A DNA stretch of 64,000 nt, from contig OZ244160.1 in NCBI GenBank assembly GCA_965216325.1, positions 576,001 to 640,000 of the forward strand, given 5' to 3'. This DNA is from Coraliomargarita sp. (lineage in GTDB: Bacteria > Verrucomicrobiota > Verrucomicrobiia > Opitutales > Coraliomargaritaceae). The translations under genes and the position numbers were made by a program. Position 1 is the stretch's first letter. The number at the start of each line of letters is the position of its first letter. Shown piece by piece: positions 10,325-31,811 of the stretch. The notes under the pieces were generated by a model that worked only from the letters and a program-made list of their open reading frames with translations, was not told where the DNA came from and ran no database searches.

Positions 10325-10455
10325 CTATTGAATTACACGCAAGCTTTCGGGTTGATGTGGATGTTCTGATTGTGGCATTTGCTGTCTGTTGCTAAGACCG
10401 CAAACTCGGGAAGTTCCTTGCGCTGGATTCGTCTGTGGTGCAGTTTCGCCCTCCA

Positions 10456-12393
10456 ATGAAAAAGATCCTGTTACCTTTGGCACTTAGTCTGGGAATCGTG
10501 ATCGGCTGGTTTGCCGGTGGGAATCGTGAACGGAGTGATTCTGTGGTTTTGGAGCAGCTTCCACAGCAGCCTAGCGTAGCTGTGAGTGACGAAACGGTTG
10601 ATGAGTCGAGTATCCTCCCGCCGGGAGAGCTCGAATTGGGTGTCGGTATTGACGAACTGGAGACATGGACACTGGACCAGAAGTTAGCGCGCATCGATAC
10701 GCTTAAAAAATCGCAGTCGTTGACGAACACGATCGCTTCACTGAATCTGATCGCCTCCATGTCAGAGACCGAGCTTAGGGACATGCTTGGAGAGGCTTCA
10801 AAGCGTGGCTTTGGCAGTATGGATGATTTCTTCATGCCTTATTACACCTTCTTGGCATGGGTAGAAAAGAATCCTGATAGTGCTTATGATTTTTACCTGA
10901 ATGAGGCACAGCCGATGCAAAAGCAGATGTATTCACAGTCGCTTTTCTCGGCATGGGCGACACGGGATGCGGAGGGCGCAATTGCTGCGGCTGATCAAAT
11001 CGAGTCGGAGCACGAGCGTGCTCAAGCGATGGGAGCGATTGCGATGTCGTTGGCAGGATCGGACCCGGAGGCTGCCGTTGATTTGCTGCAGTCGAGGGAT
11101 GATACGAAACCATGGAATTATCAGACCGTTTTTATGATGTGGGCGGGGTCCAATCCGGATAAAGCGTTTGCGAAGTTGGAGTCGCTGCCTGAGGGGCAGG
11201 AGCGGGAAAATGCGTTTCAGGGCTATATTCGTGGAATTGCGAGCAAGGACGTGACTAAAGCGGCTGACATGGCGATCAATCTAGAAAATGAAAGGGATCG
11301 CGCTCAGGCCCTACAGAGTGTCATGCATCTCTGGCTTAATTCTGATTCCGACGCGGCATTTGATTTCCTAACTCGGCTGGACGAAGGCAAGCTGAAGAAT
11401 GACTTACTGCGTAATTCGATCTGGAATCTCACACGCCAGGACCCCGAACTTGCGCTTCGAGTGGTGAATGAGCAAATGACTGGGCGTGCACGCGATGATG
11501 CTTTGGGGAATGTGATCAATCAGTTGGCCAACGACTCTCCGGAAAAGGCAGTGGCGGTTGTTGCGACCTTGCCCTATGGTCGTGTCTACGAGAACGCGGT
11601 CCGCAACATTGCCAGTAATTGGGGGAGGAAGGATCCAGTGGCTGCATTGAACTGGGTGCACAGTCTTGAAGAGGGGCAGGAGAAGGACAGCGCCCTCAGT
11701 AATGTGTATAGTTCTTTTGCGAACGCGAAGACCGATGAGGCTCAGGCTTATTTAGTCGCGATGCCGGATGGTGATGAAAAGAAGAAGCTGGTGGATGCCT
11801 TGGGGGCTAAGCTTGCGCAGACGGATCCCCAAGCAGCAATCCTTTGGGCGAAGTCGATGGCTACGGAGGAATACGTGAAGTTAGCGCAAGATCGTGTGAT
11901 TAGTGCGTGGGCTCAGGAGAAACCTTTGGAGGCGATTCAGTATTTAGAGGCTACCGGAGATACCGAGCGTTTAAACGATCAGATTTGGTCACTCGCCAAT
12001 GGTTACGCTCGTCAGGACGTGAAAGCTGCGGCGGATTGGGCGGGCACGATTGAGGATGAGGATGCGCGTCGGAAGGCCTATGAGCGCGTTGCCGACGAGT
12101 GGTTGCAGCACAATACCGAGGAAGCATCTATTTGGATCGCGGGTCTCGAAACGAGCCCGGAACGTGATAGCTCCGTACGCAAGCTAGTAGATAAAATCTA
12201 TCGTTCAGATCCCGATGCGGCCTTTCAATGGGCTGCAACGATCGAGAATCAGAATGAACGGCGCAATGCCACACGCCGAGCGATCGACTTTCTCAGCCAT
12301 AGTGATCGTAAGGAGGAAGCACAGGCACTGATCGATGGTAGTGAGCTAAGTGAAGCCGATAAAGAGCACCTCCAGAAGCGACTGGGTAAATAG
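10456..12393 (+). CDS. Secreted/anchored alpha-helical repeat protein (WAxxDPxAA repeats)
   Basis: Signal/TM N-terminus and many W-x-x-x-D/N-P-x-A-A helical repeats. Confidence 0.8.
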   Translation: MKKILLPLALSLGIVIGWFAGGNRERSDSVVLEQLPQQPSVAVSDETVDESSILPPGELELGVGIDELETWTLDQKLARIDTLKKSQSLTNTIASLNLIASMSETELRDMLGEASKRGFGSMDDFFMPYYTFLAWVEKNPDSAYDFYLNEAQPMQKQMYSQSLFSAWATRDAEGAIAAADQIESEHERAQAMGAIAMSLAGSDPEAAVDLLQSRDDTKPWNYQTVFMMWAGSNPDKAFAKLESLPEGQERENAFQGYIRGIASKDVTKAADMAINLENERDRAQALQSVMHLWLNSDSDAAFDFLTRLDEGKLKNDLLRNSIWNLTRQDPELALRVVNEQMTGRARDDALGNVINQLANDSPEKAVAVVATLPYGRVYENAVRNIASNWGRKDPVAALNWVHSLEEGQEKDSALSNVYSSFANAKTDEAQAYLVAMPDGDEKKKLVDALGAKLAQTDPQAAILWAKSMATEEYVKLAQDRVISAWAQEKPLEAIQYLEATGDTERLNDQIWSLANGYARQDVKAAADWAGTIEDEDARRKAYERVADEWLQHNTEEASIWIAGLETSPERDSSVRKLVDKIYRSDPDAAFQWAATIENQNERRNATRRAIDFLSHSDRKEEAQALIDGSELSEADKEHLQKRLGK

Positions 12394-12528
12394 AGAGGTT
12401 GAGCTGTGCTCTGTTCAGATGTGTCACGTACCTATGTTTAATAGAACTGTTTGAGTGAAATGAGCTTGTCGGCTGAGGGAAGGGCATACGGCCAACTTGA
12501 GCGTGCTACAGTTCTAAAGCTGCCACTC

Positions 12529-12726
12529 AGGCTATTCAACCGTGACCGACTTGGCTAAGTTGCGTGGCTTGTCGACATCACAGCCGCGAGCGAGCGCGAT
12601 GTGGTAGCTGAGCAGCTGCACCGGAATGCTCATGAGAATTGGACGGGCGATGTCGTGGCTTTCCGGAACGACGATCAGATCGTCGATCAGATCTTCCGGC
12701 ATCTCGCAGTCAGCGCTCGCGATACA
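12529..12726 (-). pseudogene. glmS: Second copy of the glmS 3' end (last ~64 codons plus stop)
   Basis: Direct repeat of 14034-14231 (offset 1505 bp) with 4 mismatches, all synonymous. Confidence 0.95.
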
Positions 12727-12729
12727 TGG

Positions 12730-12814
12730 AACGCTTAAAAGGAACGCTTAAAAGGGACAGGCTAAAAGTAGCAGGTTGAGTTGCGTCTTATTCAGTAGTG
12801 GTTATGCTGTTTTT
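12730..12814 (+). mobile_element. Left end/origin of HUH element copy 1 with a 13-nt tandem truncated unit
   Basis: AACGCTTAAAAGG (12730-12742) followed by AACGCTTAAAAGGGACAGGCT... (from 12743). Same leader as copy 2. Confidence 0.8.
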
Positions 12815-13837
12815 ATGCGACAGCGACGACTCAAGGTCGGTGGACGGGAAGCGATCTATCACTGCATGACTCGCACCGTGAATGGTGAGCTTCTCTTTAA
12901 GGATAGAGAGAAAGAGATGCTCCGGAAGATGATGCACATAGTTGCAGACTTTTGTGGGGTGCAGGTGCTCACATTCTGCATTATGTCAAATCATTTTCAC
13001 GTGCTCGTGAAAGTGCCAGCCTCACCGAGAGTATCTGATCAAGAGCTGATGCGGCGTTATCGGGTGCTGTATCCGAAACCGACGAAATATCAGGCTGAAT
13101 CTGCGAAACAGATGGAGCTGACGCTATCTGATGGCGGCGAGGATGCGGAAGTGATTCGTGCGAAGTTGTTGGCCCGAATGGCGGATGTCTCGGAGTTTAT
13201 GAAGGCGCTGAAACAGCGCTTCTCGGTCTGGTATAATCGTAGTCACCGTCGTTATGGAACTCTCTGGGCGGAGCGCTTCAAGTCGGTCTTGGTGGAAGGC
13301 GAGGGCAATGCCTTGCAAACCATGGCGGCCTATATCGATCTGAACCCTGTCCGGGCGGGATTAGTCGAGGATCCAAAGGATTACCGTTTCTGTGGCTATG
13401 CAGAAGCCGTTGCGGGAGTCTCTGAAGCCCGCATTGGTTTGAAGTGTATTTGGGCTGATCATGCTGGAGCGGACTCGAGTGAAGTGACGCACAAGTGCGC
13501 ACGCTACGGGTCTGTCATGAAGGCGCACCGCCAGTTGCTTTTCGGGAAAGGGGCGAGTCCGTGGACACATCACGGTAAAGTCATCAATCGCAAACAAGCG
13601 CTTAAGGTGCTGGAAGAGCAGGACGGCCAGCTGTCTAAAGCTGCAGTCTTGCGTTGCCGGGTTCGCTATTTCACGGACGGGGCCATTCTTGGCTCATCGG
13701 AATTTGTTCGAGGCTTTGCTGGCGCTTGGCAGTTGGACCGCGGGCGGAAGCATCCTCCTAAGACGAATCGCCTCCGTGGAGCCGATTGGGGCGATTTGTC
13801 TGTGATTCAAGGCCTACGACGGCAGGTGTTTGGCTAG
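12815..13837 (+). CDS. Large Y1 HUH transposase-like protein (IS200/RAYT superfamily), copy 1
   Basis: YHCMTR, CIMSNHFH (HUH), GTLWAERFKS and YIDLNPVRAG motifs. ATG 12815 preferred over TTG 12776. Confidence 0.9.
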   Translation: MRQRRLKVGGREAIYHCMTRTVNGELLFKDREKEMLRKMMHIVADFCGVQVLTFCIMSNHFHVLVKVPASPRVSDQELMRRYRVLYPKPTKYQAESAKQMELTLSDGGEDAEVIRAKLLARMADVSEFMKALKQRFSVWYNRSHRRYGTLWAERFKSVLVEGEGNALQTMAAYIDLNPVRAGLVEDPKDYRFCGYAEAVAGVSEARIGLKCIWADHAGADSSEVTHKCARYGSVMKAHRQLLFGKGASPWTHHGKVINRKQALKVLEEQDGQLSKAAVLRCRVRYFTDGAILGSSEFVRGFAGAWQLDRGRKHPPKTNRLRGADWGDLSVIQGLRRQVFG

Positions 13838-14036
13838 CTTCGCGGACCAATGGTTCCCTTGTTTTTGCAGATGAGTAACTGGGCGGGCAGTCTGGAGACA
13901 TGCGGGTCTTGAGAGATATCCCAAGCATTCTGGGGAACTAGACCTGCCGACGTGTGGTTGAGCTAGGTGGGAAAACGCCCACTGTTTCAAGGTGGACGTT
14001 GATAACACTTAAGCTCTTGTTTGGCTTCCGCTGAGG

Positions 14037-15884
14037 CTATTCCACCGTGACCGATTTGGCTAAGTTGCGCGGCTTGTCGACATCACAGCCGCGAGCGAGC
14101 GCGATGTGGTAGCTGAGCAGCTGCACTGGAATGCTCATGAGAATTGGACGGGCGATGTCGTGGCTTTCCGGAACGACGATCAGATCGTCGATCAGATCTT
14201 CCGGCATCTCGCAGTCAGCGCTCGCGATACAAATGACCTTACCTTTACGCGCTTTGACCTCCTGAATGTTTGCTAGACTCTTCTGGAAGATTTCACCGGA
14301 TGCAGCGAGGAAGACACTTGGGCAGTCTTCGCTGATCAATGCGATCGGGCCGTGTTTCATCTCCGCTGCAGGGTAACCTTCTGCGTGAATGTAAGAGATT
14401 TCTTTCAGCTTGAGCGCACCTTCCAAGGCAATCGGGAACATAAACTGACGGCCGAGGAAGAGGCAGTCTTCGTAGTGTGCGTAACGCTTTGCGATTTCCT
14501 CGATCTTGCCGTTCTGCTTGAGCACCTCGCGGACCTGATCCGGGAGGGCCTTGAGCGCTTTGACTATATCGGCACCGTCGCTGTAGCTCAAGTCTCGGAG
14601 GCGGCCGAAGTATAGTGCGACCATCGCACCGAGCAGCACTTGGGAAGTAAATGCTTTGGTTGAGGCCACACCAATTTCCGGGCCTGCGTGCTGGTAGATA
14701 CCACCGTCACATTCGCGAGCGATGGTGGAGCCGACACTGTTGTTAATTGAAAGCGTGCGATAGCCTTTACGCTTGGCTTCACGCAGCGCAGCCAGTGTGT
14801 CGATGGTTTCACCGGATTGGCTGATCGCAAAGACCAGGGTGTTCTTGTCCAGAGGTGCGTTGCGATAACGGAACTCGGAGGCGTATTCGACTTCAACAGG
14901 AATGCGCGCATAGCGCTCGATCAGATACTCCGCCATCAAGCAGGCGTGCCATGCGGTGCCACAAGCGAGGAAGAGAATGCGGTCCACATTGCGCAGGTCC
15001 TGTGGGCTCAGATTTAGTCCACCAAAGAAGGCGGTGCTGCCGTCGTCCGAGAAGCGGCCACGCATACCGTTTTCGAGCGCGGTTGGCTGCTCGAAAATTT
15101 CCTTCTCCATGAAGTGACTGTAGTTGCCGAGTTCTGCTTCGCTAGTGTCCCAGTCGACTTGTTGGATGACTGGCTCAACGTCCTTACTGGATGCAGTGGT
15201 AATCGAAAAGTCGTCGTCACGGAGGTGCACGACTTCGTTGTCGTTCAAATAGATGACGTTCTGCGTGCAATGGGTGATCGCGTTTACGTCGGAGGCAATG
15301 AGGTTCTCGCCCTTGCCGATGCCGACGATCAGAGGAGAGCCTTTGCGTGCGCCGATGAGTTCGTTCGGGTAGTCGCTGCAGAGCACTGCGATGCCGTAGG
15401 TGCCTTCTACATGGCTCAGGCTTTTGCGCACGGCTTCCAAAAAGCGGTTTTTGCCCTTGGACTCAGGTTCCTTGTCGTAGTGGTAGGCGATCATATTGGA
15501 GAGCGCCTCGGAGTCGGTTTCGGAGCTGAAGGTGTAGCCTTTCTCTGTGAGAAAGTTCTTCATGCCGAGGTAGTTTTCGATCACCCCGTTGTGCACTAGC
15601 GCAATTTTTCCATCGCTGCTGACGTGTGGGTGGGCGTTGGCTTCAGTGACATCACCGTGAGTGGCCCAACGTGTGTGGCTGATTCCGAGCGTGCCGCCTA
15701 AATCTTCACCTAAAGCGCGCTCCAATTCCTTGACGCGGCCCGTTCTACGTATAGTGCTAAAGCCGTTACTGCTACTAATGGTCATTCCCGACGAATCATA
15801 CCCTCGGTATTCGAGGCGCTTTAATCCATCCAGCATCACGCTACCCGCACGGGAGCGACCAATATATCCTACGATTCCACACAT
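14037..15884 (-). CDS. glmS: Glutamine-fructose-6-phosphate transaminase
   Basis: Starts MCGIVG, ends [23 protein letters not shown] and SQSGET motifs. Confidence 0.98.
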   Translation of the reverse strand: MCGIVGYIGRSRAGSVMLDGLKRLEYRGYDSSGMTISSSNGFSTIRRTGRVKELERALGEDLGGTLGISHTRWATHGDVTEANAHPHVSSDGKIALVHNGVIENYLGMKNFLTEKGYTFSSETDSEALSNMIAYHYDKEPESKGKNRFLEAVRKSLSHVEGTYGIAVLCSDYPNELIGARKGSPLIVGIGKGENLIASDVNAITHCTQNVIYLNDNEVVHLRDDDFSITTASSKDVEPVIQQVDWDTSEAELGNYSHFMEKEIFEQPTALENGMRGRFSDDGSTAFFGGLNLSPQDLRNVDRILFLACGTAWHACLMAEYLIERYARIPVEVEYASEFRYRNAPLDKNTLVFAISQSGETIDTLAALREAKRKGYRTLSINNSVGSTIARECDGGIYQHAGPEIGVASTKAFTSQVLLGAMVALYFGRLRDLSYSDGADIVKALKALPDQVREVLKQNGKIEEIAKRYAHYEDCLFLGRQFMFPIALEGALKLKEISYIHAEGYPAAEMKHGPIALISEDCPSVFLAASGEIFQKSLANIQEVKARKGKVICIASADCEMPEDLIDDLIVVPESHDIARPILMSIPVQLLSYHIALARGCDVDKPRNLAKSVTVE

Positions 15885-15959
15885 AAGGGGGCATATCTGT
15901 ATGCTGCCCCATGCTGGAGGCAAGACCCTAATTTCTCTGTATACTCCACTAACATTACT

Positions 15960-29354: not shown

Positions 29355-29456
29355 GCTTCGGTCGCCAGGGGGCAGTCGCTCAACTAGCCGATGTCTCGTG
29401 ACGACTGGTTAGGCCTTCTTGTAGTTCTTTAAGTCTTTTCATGACTTCCAAAGGTA

Positions 29457-29738
29457 TGATATGTCCTGAGAAAAATGGACATGGGATTCTCTTAAGTAGA
29501 GGATCACACCATGCAAAGACGACGATACACTGCCGAGTTTAAAAACGAGGCCGTAAAGATGCTATTAATCGAGGGGCTCTCCGTGAAGGAGGTCTCTGAA
29601 CAACTCGGGGTTCCTAAGGGGATGCTGTATGCCTGGAAGGCGAAGCACCTCGACGATCTGGAGGCACAGACTCCAGAAGGAGCTCAAAGCCCGAAGGCCT
29701 TGGCCGCAGAGAACGATCAGCTACGTAGGGCTTCCTGA
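29457..29738 (+). mobile_element. Truncated IS3-family element: left end plus partial orfA (29511-29738), no orfB
   Basis: TGATATGTCC..AAAAATGGACA IRL-like end. RRRYTAEFKNEAV..VSEQLGV..LYAW HTH. Cut in the leucine-zipper region. Confidence 0.85.
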
Positions 29739-29785: not shown

Positions 29786-29940
29786 AACGTTTTAAAGGGA
29801 CAAACGTTTAAAAGGGACAGGCTAAAAGTAGCAGGTTGAGTTGCGTCTTATTCAGTAGTGGTTATGCTAACGTTTAAAAGGGACAGGCTAAAAGTAGCAG
29901 GTTGAGTTGCGTCTTATTCAGTAGTGGTTATGCTGTTTTT
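29786..29940 (+). mobile_element. Left end/origin of HUH element copy 2 with three tandem units
   Basis: Units start AACG at 29786 (17 nt), 29803 (66 nt) and 29869 (full leader). Confidence 0.88.
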
Positions 29941-30921
29941 ATGCGACAGCGACGACTCAAGGTCGGTGGACGGGAAGCGATCTATCACTGCATGACTCGC
30001 ACCGTGAATGGTGAGCTTCTCTTTAAGGATAGAGAGAAAGAGATGCTCCGGAAGATGATGCACATAGTTGCAGACTTTTGTGGGGTGCAGGTGCTCACAT
30101 TCTGCATTATGTCAAATCATTTTCACGTGCTCGTGAAAGTGCCAGCCTCACCGAGAGTATCTGATCAAGAACTGATGCGGCGTTATCGGGTGCTGTATCC
30201 GAAACCGACGAAATATCAGGCTGAATCTGCGAAACAGATGGAGCTGACGCTATCTGATGGCGGCGAGGATGCGGAAGTGATTCGTGCGAAGTTGTTGGCC
30301 CGAATGGCGGATGTCTCGGAGTTTATGAAGGCGCTGAAACAGCGCTTCTCGGTCTGGTATAATCGTAGTCACCGTCGTTATGGAACTCTCTGGGCGGAGC
30401 GCTTCAAGTCGGTCTTGGTGGAAGGCGAGGGCAATGCCTTGCAAACCATGGCGGCCTATATCGATCTGAACCCTGTCCGGGCGGGATTAGTCGAGGATCC
30501 AAAGGATTACCGTTTCTGTGGCTATGCAGAAGCCGTTGCGGGTGTTGTGGAGGCTAGGGAGGGCTTGAGGCGTATTTGGGCCGATCATGGGCGGAATTAT
30601 CTCCAAGCACATCGCACGCTACTTTTCGGCAAGAGTGCGAGCCCATGGACACATCACGGCAAAGTGATCAACCGCAAGAAAGCTCTCCAAGTGCTCGAGG
30701 AGGATGGGGGACAGCTGTCTATAGCTGTGGTGCTGCGCTGCCGTGTACGCTATTTCACTGACGGTGCCATTCTGGGTTCGTCAGAGTTTGTGCGTGGCTT
30801 TACCGGTGCCTGGCAGCTTGAGCGCAGCCGAAAATATCCTCCGAAGGCGAATGCACTGCGTGGAGCGGATTGGGGAGATCTTTCAGTGATTCAAGGGCTG
30901 CGACGACAGGTTTTTAGCTAA
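29941..30921 (+). CDS. Large Y1 HUH transposase-like protein, copy 2
   Basis: Same motifs as 12815-13837. N-terminal ~200 aa identical, C-terminus diverged. Confidence 0.9.
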   Translation: MRQRRLKVGGREAIYHCMTRTVNGELLFKDREKEMLRKMMHIVADFCGVQVLTFCIMSNHFHVLVKVPASPRVSDQELMRRYRVLYPKPTKYQAESAKQMELTLSDGGEDAEVIRAKLLARMADVSEFMKALKQRFSVWYNRSHRRYGTLWAERFKSVLVEGEGNALQTMAAYIDLNPVRAGLVEDPKDYRFCGYAEAVAGVVEAREGLRRIWADHGRNYLQAHRTLLFGKSASPWTHHGKVINRKKALQVLEEDGGQLSIAVVLRCRVRYFTDGAILGSSEFVRGFTGAWQLERSRKYPPKANALRGADWGDLSVIQGLRRQVFS

Positions 30922-31811
30922 ATACACTCAAGTATCTGGCTCAGAGTGGTGATCTCCAGGTCTGCGACTAAATCTGCGCAGTTGGGATGCTCTTTGCGGC
31001 GGCGCAGCGAGAGCGTGTCACCGGCGAAGAGGGCGGTTTTGAAGCCAACTTCGCTGGCGGGCCAGATGTCGTTGCGCATGTCGTTACCGATGTAGAGCAC
31101 TTCATGCGGCTCAATTCCGTGGTGCTGCTTCAGGTGTGCGGCTGACAGGCGGTAGAGCGCTTGAGAGGGCTTGCCCTCCAGTTCGCGGTAGGACCAGACA
31201 TTGATGCGTTCATCGAAGTGGAGTGTCTCCAAGTCCTTGGCGAGATAGGTGTCGAACAGCAGCCGTGTGTAAAACTGTGCGTTGGAAATGATGCCGAGCA
31301 CTTGATCACACTCGTGTAACTGGCTGAGGGTTGCTTCAAGCTCAGGCATCGCTTGCGTCGGGTTAACGCGACTTTCGTAGTCGATGATCAAAGTTTCGAT
31401 GTCGGCTTCAAAGTCTTCGGTGATGAGACCATCAGCGACGAGCGCTTGAATAAAGTCGACCCAGACTTCGCGGATCTCGACCTCCGGATATTCAATGCCG
31501 TCTTCCTTGCGGGCGGCCTGATGTGCATGGATGTGCTCGTGTAGGCGATCGTCTAAACGTGCCGTTTTGGCTTCGTCAGTGAGATGTATGCCGTTGTCAG
31601 ACAAGGTCGACTTGAGCTCGGCGTCACGGTACTGCTCGGTGGCCAGACTGATGTCGCCAACTCCGGAGCTAAACAGGGTGCCATACACATCGAAGATGAC
31701 GGCCCGAATGCCGCTGAGCTGTTGCAAGCGTGCTGTGACATCATCGGGCAAGGTGACCGGGCTGGTCTGGCAGCGTGAGCGGATGAGTTCTGTCCAAGTG
31801 TCTAAGCTCAT
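30918..31811 (-). CDS. HAD-superfamily phosphatase (candidate MGPG/GPG phosphatase)
   Basis: IFDVYGTL, ISNAQ, GKPS and YIGNDMRNDI motifs. Clustered with a glycosyltransferase and gpgS. Confidence 0.85.
   Translation of the reverse strand: MSLDTWTELIRSRCQTSPVTLPDDVTARLQQLSGIRAVIFDVYGTLFSSGVGDISLATEQYRDAELKSTLSDNGIHLTDEAKTARLDDRLHEHIHAHQAARKEDGIEYPEVEIREVWVDFIQALVADGLITEDFEADIETLIIDYESRVNPTQAMPELEATLSQLHECDQVLGIISNAQFYTRLLFDTYLAKDLETLHFDERINVWSYRELEGKPSQALYRLSAAHLKQHHGIEPHEVLYIGNDMRNDIWPASEVGFKTALFAGDTLSLRRRKEHPNCADLVADLEITTLSQILECI

Follow-up and report, generated by a model that had tools for sequence, protein, structure and literature searches.

How does the 3' end of a gene come to stand a second time on the far side of a transposase gene, in front of DNA that does not follow it elsewhere? 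This question is raised by a locus in the window, by which we mean the whole 64,000-nt stretch of Coraliomargarita sp. DNA that was analysed (assembly GCA_965216325.1, contig OZ244160.1, positions 576,001 to 640,000 of the forward strand). At this locus, a gene for a Y1 (HUH) tyrosine-transposase-like protein lies between the intact glmS gene and an orphan copy of the glmS 3' end. An earlier note on this DNA had proposed homing, in which a circle of about 1.5 kb carrying the transposase gene and a captured piece of glmS integrated by a single crossover. In our analysis, the duplication looks like a one-off structural variant, or recombination scar, at an apparently active element end rather than a homing device, and the 1.5-kb interval is a resident copy of the Y1 gene (copy c1), not a self-contained mobile circle. 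The locus is made up of the following features, with positions given in the window (the prefix C1 marks coordinates in the genome):

10435-12393, + strand: gene of 652 aa (an open reading frame, ORF), left neighbour converging on the orphan tail
12394-12518, no strand: segment D, the spacer between the stop of the 652-aa gene and the orphan tail
12519-12726, - strand: orphan glmS 3' end, with codons 565-628 and stop at 12532-12726 plus 13 weakly similar nt beyond the stop
12727-12729, no strand: TGG, matching neither the orphan tail nor the element
12730-12742, + strand: partial duplicate of the left terminus of the element, 13 nt (Tandem Repeats Finder, TRF, period 13)
12743-12814, + strand: left end of c1, with an AT-rich variable stretch of 11 nt (12743-12753), the box AGGGACAGGCT (12753-12763) and an untranslated leader
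12815-13837, + strand: Y1 (HUH) tyrosine-transposase-like gene, copy c1, 340 aa from a conserved ATG, frame open from 12776
13857-14036, + strand: decayed 3' remnant of an M23-peptidase gene with two in-frame stops, the 'spacer' of the earlier note
14037-15923, - strand: intact glmS (TIGR01135, 777.9 bits), whose last 195 nt (14037-14231) are the second repeat copy

Two tails of glmS

The window repeat search returned a single direct-repeat family here (n = 1), pairing 12519-12726 with 14024-14231 (208 nt, 97% identity, spacing 1505), and genome-wide BLAST, which matches the two copies to each other at an E of about 1e-94, found no third copy. The coding share of the repeat (12532-12726 and 14037-14231) amounts to 195 nt, or 64 codons and the stop of glmS. 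Within it the tails differ at four sites (12538/14043, 12550/14055, 12565/14070 and 12622/14127), each a third codon position with the amino acid unchanged (Val, Lys, Pro, Pro); the offset of 1505 bp and the four silent mismatches reported in the earlier note are thus confirmed by repeat search, BLAST and codon comparison. All four differences fall within 12538-12622, and 12623-12726 equals 14128-14231 without a mismatch. Past the stop codon, 9 of 13 positions still agree (12519-12531 with 14024-14036), and further left the similarity is gone. At its other boundary the orphan ends at 12726 and, as the earlier note had also described, is joined through TGG to the left terminus of the element; a filler of this kind is absent from the other duplication joints of the Y1-gene family. 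One ORF lies between the two repeats. The protein encoded by the intact glmS is 97% identical to that of congener G002 and 96.5% identical to that of congener G001, and an Rfam scan of 12000-14300 (E up to 1) gave no match.

The two tails do not appear to be a product of assembly. The genome is a single 3.06-Mb contig with 0.02% contamination, and in isolate run X16 the junctions were recovered at chromosomal depth: a contig covering 11500-12595 includes the letters specific to the orphan (depth 52), and depths of 51 and 53 were recorded for the junction contig 12697-12777 and the contig 13387-14100, respectively, whereas a 161-nt contig of the shared tail has depth 107, i.e. double. Because the junction contigs occur at single depth and the shared tail at double depth, a chimeric assembly of the two tails is unlikely. 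No single record spans both tail copies, which would favour such an artefact, and X16, possibly the source sample of the assembly, is not independent proof; weighed together with the depths, a merger of the glmS alleles of two strains into one contig is nevertheless scarcely credible.

The pattern of differences bears on what the orphan once was. Random changes in the tail codons would be synonymous in about 23% of cases. Comparison with three congeners suggests that the orphan keeps the older state at 14055 and 14070, where the working copy would have changed; at 14127 two of the three congeners have a letter other than that of the orphan, and 14043 is ambiguous. Given two synonymous changes in the working copy, a neutrally evolving orphan would be expected to carry about 8.8 changes, and the probability of two or fewer is 0.007. 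We therefore accept, on this sequence evidence, that the orphan probably derives from a functional glmS allele with D downstream, because the differences are synonymous only, the changes are too few, and two different downstream contexts meet at the stop codon, which is the end of the repeat. The earlier claim that both tails evolved as coding sequence is thus supported, with far fewer changes than a decaying copy would have collected, but the odds of 1/81 offered for it came from the wrong test and overstate the case, because the working copy accounts for two or more of the four changes and the orphan for two at most. The four differences are, moreover, confined to the stop-proximal 91 nt, and the 104 joint-side nt are identical (P = 0.047 if differences are evenly spread).

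The Y1 element and its left end

The Y1 protein matches only one Pfam family, Y1_Tnp (PF01797; E 1e-13, 51.9 bits against a cut-off of 23). Among 26 homologues, H60 of the HUH site is kept in at least 90%, F61 and H62 are invariant, and so is Y173, which opens the conserved motif Y---NP (Y173..N177-P178). In the AlphaFold2 (AF2) model the N-terminal domain reaches predicted local distance difference test (pLDDT) values of 70-94, and the C-terminal half, at pLDDT below 50, is not interpretable; all 27 Foldseek matches at E <= 0.001 are Y1 transposases or their homologues (ISDra2, IS608, IS200-type, putative Y1, and TnpA-REP 4ER8), and a search of the PDB by sequence found no relative. The NCBIfam models for IS200 (NF033573, 21.2 bits against a cut-off of 55) and REP_Tyr_transpos (68 bits against 80) stay below threshold. 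Of the 8000 scored candidates 7995 are relatives, and the few with an organism name among the 120 matches listed come from Coraliomargarita, Lentimonas and Opitutaceae. The ends of the element lack hairpins, as both strands of 12700-12830 and of 13780-13870, folded as single-stranded DNA (ssDNA), gave z values of -0.4 to +1.1 against shuffles, and a promoter/terminator scan returned only a small terminator-like hairpin at 13844-13856.

These features make the gene a predicted member of the long RAYT/TIRYT-like branch of Y1 genes. The motif Y---NP points to class 2 (RAYT-like), and the length, the conserved C-terminal half and the lack of hairpins of the repetitive extragenic palindrome (REP) type point to subclass 2.1, an assignment made from motifs and not from a tree. 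In the parts of Quentin et al. (2018; PMC6006769) drawn on here, Y---NP is the signature of TnpA-Y1 class 2, and the TIRYT genes of Di Nocera et al. (2013; PMC3733652) are placed mostly in subclass 2.1 (RAYT group 1).

Four near-full copies of the Y1 gene are present in the genome (c1, c2, c3 at C1:28121 and c4 at C1:177471), together with fragments. Homology between the copies stops at the stop codon, which marks the right end of the element. One further copy lies in the window:

29786-30923, + strand: copy c2, full copy at 29869-30923, preceded by nested left-end duplicates of 17 nt and 66 nt (29786-29868)

At the left end, 21 of 25 copies, drawn from eight genomes, carry an invariant AGGGACAG box, mostly in the form AGGGACAGGCT; it stands 54-97 nt before the start codon and follows 11 variable, AT-rich bases. 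Two of the remaining copies have the box inverted upstream and two lack it, and no copy (0/25) has an inverted box downstream, from the gene to 600 nt beyond. Upstream of the box we found nested, head-to-tail partial duplicates of the left end in all of c1 to c4 and in 12 or more of the 21 forward-box copies. Their lengths vary widely (13 nt in c1, 17 and 66 nt in c2, 104 nt in c3, 433 and 130 nt in c4, 10-328 nt in relatives, and a whole element of 1052 nt in G002; overall range 8-1052 nt). Their starting point varies much less: among 17 box pairs, a count that leaves out two rows representing tandem tRNA-like repeats, leftward sharing ends 11 nt before GGGACA in seven and 10 nt before it in four, the other six distances being 9, 13, 14, 14, 15 and 32 nt. 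Such a fixed start with variable ends suggests a site-specific nick upstream of the box. The joint of the orphan tail lies 3 nt from this common start point.

The association is also visible across the genome, where the 11-mer box occurs in 19 forward copies and 1 reverse copy: a TRF tandem repeat touches 7 of the 9 loci that carry the 11-mer, some of them without a Y1 gene, as compared with 3% of the genome. The left-end site has apparently been active since the strains split, because a sister strain, represented by metagenome run X2, has a left-end partial of 8 nt and this strain one of 13 nt. A conserved box with nested duplications of fixed start may be a new finding for the family; it goes unmentioned in the portions of text of PMC6006769 and PMC3733652 considered here.

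The box, with duplications that start 10-11 nt upstream of it, is found at non-transposase genes too (C1:440591-440673 and C1:463166-468604), where it stands before a TAT-signal GFO/IDH/MocA oxidoreductase gene and several PEP-CTERM protein genes.

Copy c1 itself is mosaic, breaking sharply between 13416 and 13417. Left of this point (12743-13416) it is 99.7% identical to c2, with 2 mismatches in 674 nt, and on the right (13417-13837) identity is 72-76%. The same left part is carried by c2 and c3, and in strain X2 all copies seem to have another left variant (one contig of depth 60, with 37 differences in 438 nt).

Old neighbours, a sister strain and the origin of the orphan tail

The earlier note had taken the 200-bp spacer between the Y1 gene and glmS for cargo of the element, a view that congener alignment refutes. 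When translated through its two stops, 13857-14036 corresponds to the last 56 aa of the M23 protein of G002 at 75% identity, and congener DNA aligns from 13864 straight into glmS (82% for G002, 80% for G001). In both congeners an intact M23 gene of 338 aa converges on glmS, with 2 nt between the stop codons in G002 and 0 nt in G001. Because the congener M23 gene abuts glmS and the remnant matches the M23 3' end, the spacer is, as judged from these alignments, a decayed native neighbour of glmS.

The intact M23 gene of this genome, with a 175-aa upstream partner, stands 47 kb to the left (C1:541408-542970), and the remnant is 71% identical to it (C1:542800-542971). The 47-kb block between this gene and glmS spans C1:543050-588393, reaching 12393 in the window. 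It contains housekeeping genes, a DDE transposase and three group II intron reverse transcriptases, and no integrase was found, in line with the earlier note, among the 35 ORFs of C1:541408-586324 (at least 100 aa, overlaps removed). In G002 the two ends of the block adjoin each other on another contig, so that copy c1 sits at an old synteny breakpoint. Since the remnant is 71% and the tail copies are 98% identical, the breakpoint event is far older than the tail duplication. The element, the remnant and glmS thus form the older arrangement, and the orphan tail and D are an addition at the left terminus of the element.

The same conclusion is approached from the sister strain. A contig of X2 (depth 25) runs from 12393 through 35 other letters to 12743 and into the element, and a second contig covers 13378-15000, crossing the remnant and entering glmS, and shows 10 differences. 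In run X1, 12393 is likewise a loose end. This evidence comes from the contig joint alone, and the stretches of 12436-12669 uncovered in X1 and X2 were not counted. The sister strain therefore has the element, the remnant and glmS, and is without the orphan tail and the 138 nt (D) after the 652-aa gene, an arrangement that the earlier note had predicted for a donor site. The 27 replacement letters of the sister strain were tried as a relic of D or of the tail and showed no likeness to either (177 of 300 shuffles score equally), so its state is not explained by simple deletion. Across 11500-12393 (894 nt) of the 652-aa gene X2 shows 15 differences, six of which are in the last 138 nt.

Segment D has no second copy in the genome and no homologue in 100 other genomes of the family, where the sole match is 20 nt inside an unrelated gene of G002; its ssDNA fold is no better than those of shuffles. 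Two candidate origins were rejected, namely a relationship to the M23 3' end (46% identity) and to the region downstream of the G002 homologues of the 652-aa gene, which is not alignable. The 652-aa gene itself has no Pfam or NCBIfam match above threshold, and its homologue in G002 lies on another contig beside a MEKHLA gene, with two further tandem paralogues there. The empty site postulated in the earlier note, with glmS directly followed by D, was not found in four read runs or among the 100 family genomes; exact scans of metagenome contigs for 24 nt of D and for 27 nt of the glmS tail gave no matches, the species being seemingly absent from that collection, which makes them silent on the empty site.

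We also compared the flanks of 26 copies of the Y1 gene (up to 2.5 kb each, less at contig ends). The downstream flank is repeated at c1 only (1 of 26), and in an all-against-all comparison downstream DNA is held in common only by c4 and its orthologue on G002:C115, apart from 27 nt after the stops of two copies in G013. A 129-nt repeat around copy L064 in G015 was discarded as a candidate, being a separate dispersed repeat and not a gene tail. Because a repeated downstream flank and relocated 3' flanking DNA are both missing from the 25 other copies, homing by a captured arm is, by these comparisons, apparently not a habit of the family in the sample examined.

From the observed anatomy, synteny, strain difference and duplication footprints we infer a nick, two steps and a second haplotype, and tentatively favour a nick-primed tandem duplication of 1505 bp followed by homologous exchange with a second glmS haplotype. 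In the first step, the Y1 enzyme would nick the top strand 10-11 nt upstream of the AGGGACAGGCT box; strand-displacement synthesis from the nick would proceed rightward, in this case over 1505 nt that comprise the element, the remnant and the last 195 nt of glmS, and joining to the 5' end that the enzyme holds would leave a tandem duplication. In the second step, the locus would exchange with a haplotype in which glmS is directly followed by D and the 652-aa gene, with crossovers in the 652-aa gene and within the duplicated tail, so that the upstream element copy is removed and a chimeric orphan tail is left. A crossover inside the duplicated tail would leave the 104 joint-side nt identical and the differences stop-proximal, as they are, and the rise in X2 divergence towards the end of the 652-aa gene counts for the exchange. 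Several points weigh against this reading. It takes two steps, and the second haplotype it calls for, as does every recombination model, is the very glmS-D arrangement missing from the runs and genomes surveyed. None of the 25 other copies has a duplication that runs past the gene end, and the TGG filler, without parallel at the other joints, is left unexplained. The X2 alleles at the four variable sites are not visible in its contigs, and the polarity of the changes is weak, as the congeners are only about 80% identical. Finally, the nested duplications could have another cause linked to the box, the nick being a deduction from them.

Three other routes to the same structure were weighed. The circle of the earlier note, in which rolling-circle read-through from the left end would give a 1505-nt circle that enters the glmS tail of a glmS-D strain by a single crossover, fits the topology exactly and agrees with the synonymous-only differences expected of two functional alleles. 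Two of its elements stand, namely the joint at the left terminus, where the duplications of the family begin, and the donor arrangement of X2 and X1. It fits poorly, however, with the clustering of the mismatches, as differences are predicted on both sides of the crossover and all four are in the stop-proximal 91 nt (P about 0.05), and its empty site was not found in the runs and genomes surveyed. It also needs a cut at 14231, where nothing resembles the left-end cleavage context, and a passage between strains, and the 25 other copies neither carry downstream DNA nor repeat a flank; altogether we regard it as unlikely. We give similarly low credence to a hybrid copy, for which an element would have inserted at codon 564 of a second glmS copy or allele followed by D and then recombined within the element with the resident copy. 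The mosaic break of c1 at 13416/13417 and the left flanks of c3 (a sulfatase 5' part) and c2 (a 270-nt IS3 piece), which are cut genes whose remainders are not at the right, are what such a history would leave, but concerted evolution among the copies explains the mosaic equally well, given the left part common to c2 and c3 and the variant of X2. Moreover, the insertion would require a second glmS copy or be lethal, other copies of the element lack TGG, and the mismatch clustering is left unexplained.

The remaining route dispenses with a second haplotype. Here D would be the old region downstream of the 652-aa gene, lost with the tail in the sister strains; when a break at the left end was being repaired, D would anneal with its 3' end, by microhomology, to the end of the remnant, copy 195 nt of glmS and rejoin the element. 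The 9/13 agreement between 12519-12531 and 14024-14036 falls exactly at the end of the repeat, where such annealing would occur. Against this, a copy made in place that has since acquired four differences should hold many non-synonymous changes (P about 0.007), and the 27 letters of the sister strain resemble neither D nor the tail, which together make this copying in place very unlikely.

If the favoured sequence of nick and exchange is extended to the whole branch, its Y1 enzymes would be no ordinary transposases but site-specific nickases that cut 10-11 nt upstream of a AGGGACAGGCT box anywhere and prime local re-replication, the tail serving as a homology arm by which the element spreads between haplotypes; in this general form we consider the idea doubtful. 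A nickase of this kind would make tandem duplications of its own gene, of PEP-CTERM arrays or of a neighbour's gene tail, and the duplicated tail of an essential gene would spread the element by ordinary recombination, which is in effect the homing of the earlier note.

Related systems and the other copies

The enzymes of IS608 and ISDra2 cleave at one strand-specific point outside the conserved end sequence. With these IS200/IS605 elements the present one shares the Y1 fold, the HUH and tyrosine chemistry and, if the proposed nick is right, such a cleavage point; it differs in having no subterminal hairpins and no TnpB, in carrying Y---NP in place of Y---Q, and in ending on the right at the stop codon. 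As compared with RAYT genes of class 2, there are no cognate inverted REP hairpins here and four near-full copies where one per genome is usual. IS91/ISCR elements transpose by a one-ended rolling circle, and the circles can be rescued by homologous recombination; their enzymes form a different, larger, Rep-like HUH transposase family, and the elements have an ori end and a ter end. The topology of the circle model, with read-through, downstream capture and integration via the captured homology, is theirs, whereas the Y1 protein matches Y1_Tnp only and the 25 other copies show no 3' transduction. Integrative islands are known to duplicate the 3' end of their target gene, and Tn7 inserts at attTn7 downstream of glmS. 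The likeness to these lies in direct repeats of a gene 3' end around intervening DNA with glmS intact. Unlike in such cases, neither integrase nor Tn7-type genes were found in the 35 ORFs surveyed, the native neighbour of glmS is part of what lies between the repeats, and the orphan bears the foreign downstream sequence.

TIRYT/TIRtron elements have several features in common with the present one: a long Y1 protein (340 aa here) with HUH, Y---NP and a conserved C-terminal extension, no REP hairpins nearby, and several diverged copies per genome. The motif GGGACAG has three G where the GGGGWSAS given in the part of PMC3733652 used here has four, and so agrees with it only as GGGWSAS. The differences are that the box is found upstream only, with no inverted partner at the right end of any of the 25 copies, and that the fixed-distance nested duplications have no counterpart in the text of the two papers to the extent stated above. 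In these same portions of PMC6006769 and PMC3733652 no cognate site, substrate or activity is given for the long RAYT/TIRYT-like Y1 proteins. Such proteins are very common, and the box together with the fixed start of the duplications offers a concrete candidate for their cleavage site, with local tandem duplication, also at non-transposase genes, as its visible genomic consequence. The glmS case further indicates that long flank repeats left by such an element can look like the result of site-specific integration, and warns that the spacer beside an element may be a ruined native neighbour gene and not cargo.

The surroundings of the other copies are varied. To the left of c2, 29456-29725 consists of the first 270 nt (the end and the start of orfA) of an IS3-type element; it matches C1:388510-388779, in the full copy at C1:388510, with 97% identity. 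This piece breaks off 60 nt before the Y1 element, and the rest is not on the other side. At c3, a sulfatase-like frame (C1:27302-28039) reads into the left end of the element and stops there, and the right side is occupied by a convergent gene of 606 aa, which is not the remainder of the sulfatase; G002 has more than 100 sulfatase matches. Copy c4 (C1:177471-178526) and the G002 copy L063 (G002:C115) have a downstream flank in common (80% over 518 nt), so that their insertion predates the split of the two species; the protein of this insertion is still 78-85% identical to that of c1. Where c4 has its 433-nt and 130-nt partials, G002 has a tandem of the whole element.

Within the c1 gene, an in-frame extra segment of 42 nt, by which c1 is longer than c2, c3 and c4, contains a 26-nt imperfect palindrome (13483-13508, + strand) with 19 copies in the genome at no more than 3 mismatches, for example at C1:65856, 302061, 1662626 and 2298759. 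In-frame REP insertions are described for tnpA-REP genes of another subclass in the portion of PMC6006769 considered here. Beside c4, a non-coding tandem array (C1:179719-180587) consists of eight units of 110 bp, each forming a long hairpin with arms of about 25 nt, and more than 25 further sites in the genome carry single related units of about 85 nt. Copies c1 to c4 are all on the + strand, within a stretch where GC skew is positive, and their number (n = 4) is too small for a test of bias. The skew is positive from about 1.9 Mb through the start of the contig to about 1.1 Mb and negative only between 1.1 and 1.87 Mb, from which the replication arms would be very unequal, at about 2.3 and 0.75 Mb.

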